From Enterobacteria phage P2-EC58, in the sequence record AJ512683.1: a stretch of DNA of 1,988 nucleotides. One strand, given 5' to 3'. The notes beneath the pieces are model-generated. The model was not told the origin of the DNA. It saw nothing but the letters and a program-made list of their open reading frames with translations, and made no database searches. How positions within the stretch are numbered: position 1 is the first letter of the stretch; every line of letters starts with the position of its first letter. The position numbers and the translations under genes were made by a program. Positions 1 to 1,988 of this stretch are shown here, in pieces.

Positions 1-30
1 AATCCTGAATGGCCGGAAATGCCGAAATAA
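1..30 (+). CDS. G: 3' end of an upstream gene running off the left edge; probably the tail-fibre assembly chaperone of a P2-like phage (last 9 codons NPEWPEMPK plus TAA stop)
   Basis: In-frame codons aat cct gaa tgg ccg gaa atg ccg aaa end at TAA (28-30). The C-terminal peptide resembles what I recall of P2 gpG-type tail-fibre assembly proteins, and the position immediately upstream of the FI start matches P2 gene order (H-G-[Z/fun]-FI). Only 9 codons are visible, so the identification rests on recollection and synteny. Confidence 0.5.
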   Translation, partial: NPEWPEMPK

Positions 31-63
31 GTTGTATGAGCTCTGGTGTGAGCTGACATATCT

Positions 64-120
64 ATGGCACAGAGTAAAGCCTAATCTGACAGTCCGCTCT
101 GTGCCATGAGCGGACTGTCA
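64..120. terminator. Two overlapping, mutually exclusive inverted repeats between convergent genes: stem A 64-74/97-107 (11 bp, 22-nt loop) and stem B 87-99/108-120 (13 bp, 8-nt loop); possible bidirectional terminator or protein-binding palindrome
   Basis: Base pairing checked by hand: tggcacagag (65-74) is the reverse complement of ctctgtgcca (97-106), and gacagtccgctc (88-99) is the reverse complement of gagcggactgtc (108-119). Neither strand has a U-tract after the stems, so intrinsic-terminator function is uncertain. Confidence 0.35.
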
Positions 121-314
121 ATCAACAGATTTACGTGTAAATCTTGAAGCTATACATATTTACTTTCAATGATAAATAAAAGAACCACCCCAAAATCACT
201 GAAAGTATATTTTAACTAACCACCTGCAACTACTAACATTAATTTCACTCAACCTCAAAGAGTCGTAATTAAAATGATATGTGTAGCAATTTGCCTCGAT
301 ACGAATCATATGAA

Positions 315-1013
315 TTATATTTTTCCATGCTTTTCACCGTCAAATCGAATCATGCCAGGATCAAGAAAATAAATCAAATCAATTAACGCATGTTGTATTC
401 TGATTAGCCTTTCTTTATAAGGCTCGATATTTTTTGTCAAATTTATCACTTCATTGTTTAAATCTAAAAAAAATGGTTCATTGACAAAGCAATTTTCCTT
501 TGTGAAACCGCCGTAACCTATGCAATCAAATCCAGCATCTGTTGATATCAACATCTTTTCCGCAATAGCTCTCTGCTCTCCTATGAAAAACATAAAATAC
601 TGACCAAAGGCGTCTGTTTGGATTAATGAGTTAATATTGTTCTGTAATCTAATAAACTCCCTCATTTTTTTATTTTTTTCTAGACTAAGGTATTGAATGT
701 CTATGCGGGCGGCTTCTGTCCATGCAAAGAACTGGGAAAAAAGAAAAACCGTGTTTTTGATAACATAATCTTGTTGGCGCTTACTCCCATTATGATAAAA
801 CTCTTCAATAAACCCTAATTCTAATATGTTATAAATGCGGCTTTGTAAGTCTGAAGCTGAGCGAATTAACGGTTCAATATAGTACTGATGTTTTCTCCTT
901 ACATCCAGTGTTTCATTGAGCTTGTTTATTCTATTCTGATTATAGGTAGATATAGCAATAGAGATTATAGATATTGCACCACCAATAAGGCTTGAAATTA
1001 ATGCCACACTCAT
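315..1013 (-). CDS. Hypothetical membrane-anchored protein, 232 aa, with one N-terminal transmembrane helix and a soluble domain of unknown function; candidate anti-phage or phage-exclusion protein in the position of P2 Z/fun
   Basis: ORF of 232 codons in AT-rich DNA, where stop codons are frequent and long ORFs are unlikely by chance. ATG at 1013-1011 is preceded by AAGGA (complement of 1021-1025) with a 7-nt spacer. Residues 3-24 (VALISSLIGGAISIISIAISTY) are uniformly hydrophobic, followed by a basic stretch (NQNRINK...RRKH), which by the positive-inside rule suggests a cytoplasmic C-terminal domain. Stop is TAA at 317-315. Function is inferred from genomic context only. Confidence 0.85.
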   Translation of the reverse strand: MSVALISSLIGGAISIISIAISTYNQNRINKLNETLDVRRKHQYYIEPLIRSASDLQSRIYNILELGFIEEFYHNGSKRQQDYVIKNTVFLFSQFFAWTEAARIDIQYLSLEKNKKMREFIRLQNNINSLIQTDAFGQYFMFFIGEQRAIAEKMLISTDAGFDCIGYGGFTKENCFVNEPFFLDLNNEVINLTKNIEPYKERLIRIQHALIDLIYFLDPGMIRFDGEKHGKI

Positions 1014-1020
1014 CTAAAAG

Positions 1021-1025
1021 TCCTT
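1021..1025 (-). promoter_or_regulatory. Shine-Dalgarno sequence (AAGGA) for the 232-aa gene
   Basis: Minus-strand sequence reads aatcAAAGGActtttagATG; the spacer to the start codon is 7 nt. Confidence 0.7.
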
Positions 1026-1084
1026 TGATTTTCTTGGTTAACAAAATGACATGGTTTTATTTAATGTCGCAGCAACTTAATAAT

Positions 1085-1118
1085 ACACCATGATATGATT
1101 ATTATGGTGTGATTTTTC
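1085..1118. promoter_or_regulatory. AT-rich hairpin or palindrome (stem 1085-1095/1100-1110, 4-nt loop) followed by TTTTT on the + strand; lies about 70-100 nt upstream of the cargo gene start on the opposite strand; operator-like, or a weak + strand terminator
   Basis: acaccatgata / tattatggtgt pair over 11 positions, one of which (1092 g with 1103 t) is a G.U wobble in RNA and a mismatch in DNA; followed by gatttttcgc (1111-1120). Confidence 0.3.
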
Positions 1119-1466
1119 GCATCTGTAATCCATTACAAACAGATGCAAGGTATAACTTGTCTATTTTCAGTCAGAAAATTCGTAAACATCCAAAGTAGCC
1201 TCATCAAACTCTTAAAATTCTATACGTTTGAGTGTAAAGATTTTAAATCCAGCTGCGTGGTATCGACTCAACTTTATTATGTTTTTTATTTGTAATTAAA
1301 GGTTGCATTATTTTCGATAATAAATCATCACAAGATTGAAATATGGTTTCACTTGATGCAATGTTTCATGTGGTCCAGCGATTTGAGTTACACCCAGCTG
1401 TACGGGTAATATAAATCAAATTGATGAACTTTTGATGCACTCCTCTCTCTTCATTACTTTATGTTT

Positions 1467-1500
1467 TTGCTCTCAAAAATATCTTGCTCTCTGAAAATTA
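1467..1500. repeat. Imperfect tandem direct repeat, two copies of TTGCTCTC(TG)AAAAT(A), period about 16 bp, preceded by a polypyrimidine run (tcctctctcttc, 1441-1452)
   Basis: Copy 1 ttgctctcaaaaata at 1468-1481 and copy 2 ttgctctctgaaaatta at 1484-1500, read directly from the sequence. Confidence 0.4.
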
Positions 1501-1817
1501 TTCTTTAAGTTAAAAGTCGAGGACTGCATGAGTGTTAGATACAAAGCTAATATGTTGAAATGTTTTTCATCTCCCCATAACGGCATTATTATCTAAAACA
1601 TTTACACAAATATAGGATTACCCCTTTAACGTAAACTAGGAATCAAGTTAACACCATTATATATATCATAAACATGATATTTTGTATATTTTTATCATTT
1701 AGCCTTGATTGTACAGGGCGTACTCTCAACGAAGTAGGGAAAGTCTGTTTTTCGCTCAAAGCAGACTGTCAGATTTGATAGCGTTTTGGCTATGTAAATT
1801 GTCAGTCGGAAAATGAG

Positions 1818-1835
1818 TGTGTACAAATCAGGACA
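1818..1835 (+). promoter_or_regulatory. TGT-N12-ACA dyad (TGTgtacaaatcaggACA), matching the consensus activator site of P2 late promoters bound by Ogr-type zinc-finger activators; candidate element of the FI late promoter
   Basis: Exact TGT at 1818-1820 and ACA at 1833-1835 with a 12-nt spacer. It lies about 125-140 nt upstream of the FI start codon, but it overlaps the 5' arm of the terminator stem and no clear -10 element was found, so the assignment is tentative. Confidence 0.25.
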
Positions 1836-1862
1836 GGCGGGCAGATTGCCCGCCTTTTCTTT
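1835..1862 (+). terminator. Rho-independent terminator on the + strand: 8-bp GC-rich stem (aggcgggc / gcccgcct), 5-nt loop (agatt), then T-tract ttttcttt
   Basis: Pairs 1835-1842 with 1848-1855 verified by hand (7 G:C plus 1 A:T), immediately followed by a T-run through 1862. The minus-strand version lacks a good U-tract, so it is oriented for + strand transcripts. Confidence 0.7.
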
Positions 1863-1946
1863 ATCTGTTGTTTCATCCACTGACCAGCCAGGTCAAATAG
1901 CGTCTCATGTACTACCCAACGGAAAATAGTTGCACCCATTAACCAC

Positions 1947-1950
1947 GGAG
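1947..1950 (+). promoter_or_regulatory. Shine-Dalgarno sequence (GGAG) for the tail sheath gene
   Basis: ccacGGAGttaaacggATG; the spacer to the ATG at 1959 is 8 nt. Confidence 0.7.
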
Positions 1951-1958
1951 TTAAACGG

Positions 1959-1988
1959 ATGAGCGACTATCATCACGGCGTGCAGGTG
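1959..1988 (+). CDS. FI: 5' end of the contractile tail sheath protein gene of a P2-like phage (first 10 codons MSDYHHGVQV); continues off the right edge
   Basis: atg agc gac tat cat cac ggc gtg cag gtg translates to MSDYHHGVQV, which I recognise as the N-terminus of P2 gpFI; a good RBS sits upstream. GC content rises again here relative to the cargo. Confidence 0.8.
   Translation, partial: MSDYHHGVQV

Follow-up and report, generated by a model that had tools for sequence, protein, structure and literature searches.

What is carried between the tail genes G and FI of a P2-like Escherichia coli prophage, and what could it be for? The question is raised by a stretch of 1,988 nt from Enterobacteria phage P2-EC58 (AJ512683.1), analysed here over its full length and called the window. 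The window is the accessory-gene slot between these two genes, and its cargo is an AT-rich module of two parts, an intact minus-strand gene for a protein of 232 amino acids (aa) and, upstream of it, the remains of a nuclease gene. The reading preferred here, in which the module in this slot would supply the prophage with an autonomous, membrane-anchored anti-phage protein encoded by the 232-aa gene, is given a probability of roughly 60%. The G/FI hotspot has been known for two decades and confirming it adds little; what is new is the cargo, an uncharacterised member of the genes carried there.

The G/FI slot and its borders

Both ends of the window belong to late genes of the P2 family. Positions 1-30 (plus strand) translate to NPEWPEMPK-stop, the last nine codons and stop of the tail fibre assembly gene G, in agreement with the RefSeq annotation of a 99.8% identical prophage. 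Positions 1959-1988 (plus strand) translate to MSDYHHGVQV, the first ten codons of the tail sheath gene FI, preceded by a GGAG ribosome-binding site (1949-1952, plus strand) 7 nt 5' of the ATG, and the RefSeq tail sheath coding sequence begins at the same base. These translations are as read in an earlier note on this DNA, which had proposed from the letters alone a variable hotspot with an opposite-strand gene between plus-strand late-gene ends.

The searches covered 50,697 phage records and 5,426 complete E. coli genomes. By megablast, the window ends match P2-family G and FI features in 1,892 E. coli records and in 88 phage records (P2, Wphi, L-413C, P2-EC67 and others); the phage records match the flanks only, corresponding to 14-18% of the window. 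The whole window is present at 99.7-99.8% identity in four of the complete genomes. In one of these, GDAR2-2 (locus L001), it lies inside a complete P2-type late cluster, annotated with V, W, J, I, H and G on one side and FI, FII, E, E', T, U and D on the other, and the extended flanks do match P2 G (tail fibre assembly) and FI (tail sheath). The sole feature annotated between G and FI in this prophage, 99.8% identical to the window, is a minus-strand 'lysogenic protein'.

The limits of the cargo insert, 108-1742 with no strand assigned, were taken from border alignments. P2-EC67, which holds an unrelated cargo, aligns with the window over 1 to ~107 and ~1743 to 1988, and homology with prophages that hold other cargo ends at ~107, where the conserved P2 backbone 3' of G (31-107, plus strand) stops. 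The insert measures 1,635 bp and has 32.2% GC, against 46.7% in window 1-107, 46.3% in 1743-1988, and 52.8% and 56.2% in the neighbouring P2 genes, so that the proposed compositional break is present and GC content is not uniform across the window. The figure of about 1.9 kb of AT-rich DNA given in the earlier note stands for the composition of the cargo and has to be shortened to ~1.64 kb for its length, since conserved P2 backbone takes up ~105 nt at the left end and ~245 nt at the right.

Of the 5,426 complete E. coli genomes, 733 carry the left flank (window 1-125), with an alignment that stops at 100-117 in nearly every case. In six prophages sampled down this list the cargos are all different and unrelated; they comprise between one and three genes, in either orientation, over G-FI intervals of 1.1-3.5 kb, and confirm directly that conserved flanks surround a variable cargo. 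The junction is the recognised 'moron position 2' of P2-like phages (PMC3573123; AJ512685), as expected from the proposed hotspot, and in CFT073 it holds neaT, which is AT-rich and lies on the opposite strand (PMC3573123). The analysis of Rousset et al. 2022 was limited to the other P2 hotspot, old/tin. The interior of the present cargo has no match in the phage collection, searched by blastn, or in the plasmid collection.

The slot is bracketed by an inverted repeat of the phage backbone, with unrelated cargos between its two copies in different prophages. The left core, IR-L, AATCTGACAGTCCGCTCTGTGC (83-104, plus strand), is 22 nt long and complementary at 19 of 22 positions to the right core, IR-R (1754-1775, minus strand), with an alignment score of 29, where 500 shuffles averaged 14.1 and reached at most 26. 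The distance from the G stop to IR-L is 53 nt in P2-EC67 and in all the sampled prophages but that of locus L051, where it is 41 nt, and these copies of IR-L have 0-2 mismatches; IR-R is likewise kept beside unrelated cargo in P2-EC67 and five of the six, so that both cores are present in P2-EC67 and five sampled prophages. Because the 22-nt cores sit with unrelated cargos across prophages, they are backbone that brackets the cargo. Breakpoints relative to other cargos lie immediately internal to them. The P2-EC67 'proviral Z-region' record (AJ512685) likewise annotates a left and a right inverted repeat at G/FI, and of the ~100-nt repeats annotated there only the 22-nt core aligns. More speculatively, and with the odds against it, the cores may be the recognition sites of a dedicated cargo-swapping mechanism.

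It was proposed some time ago that the G/FI slot is filled through site-specific recombination, which gives interest to the cargo of the APEC E16002 prophage (L047 3952-5885, NZ_CP126944.1), where the G/FI interval includes a DUF5677 protein and a 194-aa fragment of a tyrosine recombinase/integrase.

The intact gene for a predicted 232-aa membrane protein

The cargo contains one intact gene, a 232-aa open reading frame (ORF) at 315-1013 on the minus strand, which is the opposite-strand gene of the earlier note and corresponds to the RefSeq 'lysogenic protein' (WP_087889723 family). An AAGGA Shine-Dalgarno sequence lies 8 nt 5' of its ATG. Besides this gene the window has no ORF longer than 61 aa, and six-frame Pfam scans of the upstream DNA were empty. 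Three lineages of the module were aligned, namely the window, a copy of the ST131 type (L002) and a copy in a non-phage island (L009). The ratio of non-synonymous to synonymous substitution (dN/dS) in the ORF is 0.17-0.27 across the three lineages, compared with 0.5-0.9 in every frame of the stretch upstream, and the gene is under purifying selection.

Pfam and NCBIfam contain nothing that matches the protein, and its PHROG, 5606, has no assigned function. By tblastn against the 50,697 phage records, P2 and P2-EC67 included, nothing was obtained at E <= 1e-3, and neither this search nor blastn of the cargo interior places it in the P2 fun(Z) family. An exhaustive profile search retrieved 1,842 cluster representatives at E <= 1e-3, 400 of them at E <= 1e-30, nearly all of which are stand-alone proteins of ~230-280 aa; the family is spread over soil, water and gut Proteobacteria and is not one of pathogens in particular. 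Invariant polar motifs in the family alignment are EPLxRAxxDLQSRIYNI, NTxFLxAQFFAWTE, FxGEQRAIGE and LQHALIDLxxFLDP, and D55, R59, E146 and R148 are among the invariant residues. An Rx5H motif resembling that of HEPN proteins, noticed by eye near residues 202-208, was rejected as its histidine is not conserved in the family alignment.

Three rare long members, P0249 (557 aa), P0250 (622 aa) and P0338 (328 aa), have extra C-terminal regions. Two long members show a weak chymotrypsin/NARROW LEAF 1 (NAL1)-like C-terminal region and one a GerE/LuxR helix-turn-helix, which hints that the domain can be coupled to an effector or regulator. A scan of genome contigs for close relatives gave only a fragmentary copy in Yersinia rohdei ATCC 43380 (L019 2459-2646), where overlapping fragments cover residues 16-48 and 186-232 only; it is probably a decayed copy of the gene.

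The protein has the features of a single-pass inner-membrane protein with one predicted N-terminal transmembrane (TM) helix. Mean Kyte-Doolittle hydropathy is 2.35 over residues 3-21, no second segment exceeds 1.0, and residues 25-45 contain five K/R and two D/E. Because basic residues follow the TM helix, the remaining helical domain is predicted to face the cytoplasm. The AlphaFold model (pLDDT 84.9) has a long N-terminal helix including the sole hydrophobic segment, followed by a helical bundle and a small beta hairpin, and the domain has no enzyme signature. A sequence profile search of the PDB returned nothing, and in the viral structure library BFVD there was no match at E <= 0.001.

The sole family-level lead is the PADLOC profile PDLC03799, 'RTasTM', which the 232-aa protein matches at E 1.4e-6 and 26 bits. 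Ten of ten diverse family members match the same profile at E 1e-5 to 1e-9, some over nearly full-length alignments, and one also matches Drt1b (PDLC02172) at E 0.005. These profile matches point to a remote relative of the Drt1b/RTasTM family, not to a demonstrated member. RTasTM/Drt1b is a single-pass membrane protein of unknown role that is encoded beside a minority of UG1/UG5 reverse transcriptase (RT)-nitrilase systems (PMC9226505, PMC9122126, PMC13275509, PMC13436386); it is a suspected effector (PMC13275509, PMC9226505, PMC9122126) and is dispensable in many DRT1/UG5 systems (PMC13275509, PMC13436386). No reverse transcriptase was found in the window, in the annotated neighbourhood or in any of 12 family contexts examined, and because this defining enzyme is absent the cargo is not a member of a DRT system. 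Full-text literature searches for the protein accessions and for 'RTasTM' returned nothing relevant.

A decayed nuclease gene upstream

The 930 nt upstream of the gene, AT-rich DNA in which the earlier note names no feature, are mostly a pseudogene, and most of the apparently non-coding DNA of the cargo is a decayed PD-(D/E)xK nuclease gene. This stretch occurs in E. coli only together with the 232-aa ORF, has no match in the phage or plasmid collections, and is homologous in all three lineages down to about window position 1722. A pattern scan of metagenomes with two invariant anchors retrieved the same DNA in a locus, L033, that is 88% identical to the non-phage island copy and contains an intact 163-aa ORF of the nuclease family with no 232-aa gene alongside. 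Compared with that ORF, window 1596-1165 has no start codon, 11 deletions and in-frame stops, and its D...ExK motif is destroyed; it is therefore listed as a pseudogene (1165-1596, minus strand) of a 150-aa PD-(D/E)xK-fold nuclease family. Six of the 11 deletions are common to the ST131-type copy, so that the nuclease gene was dead before these two lineages diverged, and the only lesion of the non-phage island copy is a 1-nt deletion in an A-run. Distal to the pseudogene, 1597-1742 (minus strand) is the former upstream region of the nuclease gene and now the distal end of the cargo; it is alignable among the three lineages to ~1722 and has no ORF and no Rfam match.

The intact nuclease family has 1,266 matches and is unannotated, and its invariant residues include D, E-x-K and H. 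It carries the PD-(D/E)xK (restriction endonuclease) fold with the D...(D/E)xK motif, and no sequence-level family assignment was obtained for it. Intact copies are solitary cargo; the copy in E. coli TA054 adjoins a Cap4-nuclease gene and a UvrD-like helicase, and a further one is the immediate neighbour of the tail-fibre assembly gene in a different P2-like prophage.

A small upstream ORF conserved in the three lineages ('SRY..GFK..F.EFDE') had been considered and was rejected, with dN/dS of 0.5-0.9 in all frames, no third-position bias and an in-frame TAA in the window; it is the C-terminal part of the nuclease pseudogene. A six-frame Pfam scan for a decayed known domain found nothing, and the pseudogene was recognised only through the metagenome locus. 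Long AT-rich 'non-coding' stretches in cargo slots can thus be dead cargo genes, a caution for genome scans, and in the present case the dead gene became visible only once an intact metagenome relative had been found.

It could be argued that the ~700-nt upstream stretch is retained as a functional RNA or a long regulatory leader, such as a structured 5' untranslated region or an antisense RNA. The stretch is kept in all three lineages despite heavy decay, it folds more strongly than shuffled sequences on both strands (z of -3.2 and -2.9), and a long hairpin at ~1520-1615 has three compensatory pairs. However, these z-scores come from 20 shuffles and are symmetric between strands, the covariation contributes only -3.5 of -61 kcal/mol in three sequences with many broken pairs, and Rfam gave no match. 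Divergence between the window and the ST131-type copy reaches 20-30% at 1050-1450, above the synonymous divergence of 0.15 in the ORF, and upstream gaps are merely 150-350 nt in most members of the 232-aa family. A retained RNA is therefore given little credence. A structured non-coding RNA in this stretch had also been tried as a candidate and was not supported, with no Rfam match, a fold z of about -3 on both strands and weak RNAalifold covariation over the three sequences; among Rfam families of retron msr/msd, DRT non-coding RNAs, type III antitoxins and small RNAs, no match exceeded 21 bits or reached the gathering score.

The presence of two genes side by side also allows the module to be read as the non-functional relic of a two-gene system of nuclease and membrane protein, in which the 232-aa ORF has not yet decayed. 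Defence systems are known in which a nuclease is paired with a membrane protein, and the two genes of the module are adjacent, co-oriented and were co-transferred in three lineages. Such a relic is nevertheless improbable. In all loci fetched the two families occur together only in closely related modules, where the nuclease is always broken, and elsewhere they are solitary. Moreover, loss of the nuclease predates the split between the window and the ST131-type copy, yet the ORF shows a dN/dS of 0.27 between these two lineages that share inactivating deletions. Since either gene family is also found on its own, and selection on the 232-aa gene outlasted the death of its neighbour, the simplest reading is that the nuclease gene and the 232-aa gene are independent cargo genes in tandem, one of them dead.

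Capture of the module by a lambdoid-type prophage

A lambdoid-type prophage common in E. coli has also received a copy of the two-part module. Window ~33-1762 is present at 86-87% identity in 409 of the 5,426 complete genomes (~8%), for example at L052 22686-24400 (NZ_CP146595.1), inside a lambdoid-type prophage whose integration site is by the tRNA cluster adjoining pgsA/uvrC; there the copy separates the replication genes from the antiterminator Q. At least one of the 409 genomes is labelled O25b:H4-ST131, and several of the strain names are ones that we take to be ST131 reference strains. P2 backbone is kept at both ends of the copy, with ~75 nt from 3' of G, including IR-L with one mismatch, on one side and the first 20 nt of the right backbone on the other, and these scraps indicate that the module was captured from a P2-like G/FI slot. 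The transfer fits the recently reported exchange of hotspot genes between P2 and other mobile elements (PMC13586616), and provides a clean, datable case in which cargo has left a P2-like slot for a lambdoid-type prophage and taken scraps of backbone along. In two genomes an IS1 is inserted in the module copy.

A proposed role for the 232-aa protein

In the preferred reading, the prophage would express the 232-aa protein, whose N-terminal helix would hold it in the inner membrane with the conserved helical domain in the cytoplasm. It would protect the lysogen against other phages by membrane exclusion or abortive infection, and may act autonomously, in a manner like that proposed for Drt1b/RTasTM, without a reverse transcriptase. 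The genomic contexts of the family are consistent with such a role. Members are usually solitary and beside toxin-antitoxin or defence genes, with neighbours that include SIR2-HerA, RelE/MqsA with an integrase, an integrative and conjugative element, an island with DUF4238, and PIN and ParE/MazE pairs; further members are found in a Providencia P2-like remnant adjoining the tail-fibre assembly gene and near transposase fragments.

Several points weigh against an anti-phage role. At 26 bits the kinship with RTasTM is distant, and RTasTM/Drt1b is a protein whose own role has yet to be established. The 232-aa family has neither an experiment nor an annotation that ties it to resistance against phages, it receives no direct assignment from PADLOC, Pfam or NCBIfam, and fold searches of the model return generic helical bundles only. 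No promoter site above chance for the gene was found in the window. Several distant family members lie between housekeeping genes with no clear defence island, and cargo at G/FI can serve host fitness rather than defence, as in the case of neaT (PMC3573123).

In an alternative reading the gene is a lysogenic-conversion or host-fitness factor unrelated to phage defence, acting for example in envelope physiology or host interaction, like neaT in CFT073. The acyltransferase gene neaT occupies the same slot, shares the AT-rich composition and the opposite orientation, and raises fitness in bacteraemia (PMC3573123). The RefSeq name 'lysogenic protein', the fixation of the ST131-type copy in a successful human-associated lineage and the presence of some family members among housekeeping genes also fit a fitness role. 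Against it, the domain is predicted to be cytoplasmic and has no enzyme signature, the family is one of soil, water and gut Proteobacteria rather than pathogens in particular, its neighbours are repeatedly toxin-antitoxin or defence genes, and its sole detectable relatives are partners of a defence system. On balance a host-fitness factor is unlikely, though more plausible than either the retained RNA or the two-gene relic.

A more far-reaching version of the anti-phage reading, which is put forward tentatively and has the odds against it, is that the 232-aa protein may be the founding example of an autonomous single-gene anti-phage system, in which a Drt1b/RTasTM-like membrane protein acts with no reverse transcriptase, either sensing infection and then causing cell death or shutdown, or preventing phages from entering. 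If this were true, the membrane partner of the RT-nitrilase systems would be a self-sufficient effector module that RT systems had recruited. The gene is a concrete candidate for study, since its family is large, widespread (~1,800 clusters at 50% identity) and wholly unannotated and is located in a proven cargo slot, and testing it could clarify what Drt1b-type proteins do.

Other features of the window and its prophage

The spacer between the pseudogene and the intact gene (1014-1164, minus strand) probably holds the promoter and leader of the 232-aa gene, and the ~200 nt 5' of the ATG are kept in each of the three lineages. It contains two hairpins, one with a 12-bp stem at 1084-1111 and one with an 8-10-bp stem at ~1118-1150. 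The T-run that follows the 1084-1111 hairpin on the plus strand could stop antisense read-through.

At the left border a perfect 13-bp hairpin, TGACAGTCCGCTC-N8-GAGCGGACTGTCA (87-120, no strand assigned, 100% complementary), straddles the junction of backbone and cargo. Its distal half (108-120) is cargo and moves with the gene into the non-P2 loci L002 and L009. On the right, the backbone 5' of FI has a terminator-like GC-rich hairpin (1835-1855, plus strand) with a 9-bp stem of which seven pairs are GC, followed by TTTCTTTATC as a T-run; it is conserved in P2-EC67. It is abutted by a TGT-N12-ACA element at 1818-1835, also conserved in P2-EC67, the dyad tied to Ogr-type P2 late promoters, although the dyad alone is not above chance, with 0.8 expected per window. 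The window has no tandem repeat arrays and no tRNA or tmRNA.

Two observations concern the surrounding prophage. A 3-nt mismatch in the annotated G end of GDAR2-2 was traced to single-nucleotide polymorphism in that genome, in which two substitutions (window 21 and 25, L001 6021 and 6025) change the end of G from ...EMPK-stop to ...EIP-stop, one codon shorter. In other prophages G ends in ...NPEWPEMPQ-stop, and to judge from these variants the extreme C-terminus of G evidently tolerates change. A second opposite-strand hypothetical gene, of 261 aa, lies between the virion morphogenesis gene and the baseplate gene V (L001 207-992 and L048 691-1476, both minus strand), which suggests a further accessory slot in the same prophage type.

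Comparison with known systems

The decayed gene invites comparison with XisH-like and other stand-alone PD-(D/E)xK nucleases, from which it differs in that the gene in the window is destroyed and its family has no sequence-level assignment. The 232-aa protein itself resembles the membrane exclusion and abortive-infection proteins of prophages, such as P2 tin and old and the RexB type of lambda, in being small, membrane-anchored, non-essential to the phage and encoded in a prophage accessory slot, a likeness that belongs to the general knowledge of these proteins. It differs from them in that no similarity of sequence or fold was detected. The kinship with Z/fun, tin and old drawn in the earlier note accordingly stands for position and composition, and exclusion of other phages by the cargo protein is a function that we infer.

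For the Z/fun region of P2-like phages, Nilsson et al. 2004 is reportedly the source. The present slot agrees with that region, or moron position 2 (P2-EC67 record AJ512685, 'proviral Z-region'; PMC3573123), in its position, conserved flanks and bracketing inverted repeats, and in an AT-rich cargo, often on the opposite strand, that varies between prophages. It differs in having a cargo protein with no relation to P2 fun(Z), P2-EC67 ORF1 or any other protein of the phage collection, and in that its cargo also contains a pseudogene.

A further comparison is with Drt1b/RTasTM, which accompanies some UG1 (DRT type 1) and UG5-large systems. The 232-aa family differs from these in that neither a reverse transcriptase nor a nitrilase adjoins any of its 12 contexts, and in that the similarity amounts to only 22-36 bits. 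It agrees with them in size (the profile has 229 positions), in the N-terminal TM helix, in a similarity that is remote but consistent across the family, and in its location at P2/P4 hotspots (PMC9122126, PMC9226505).

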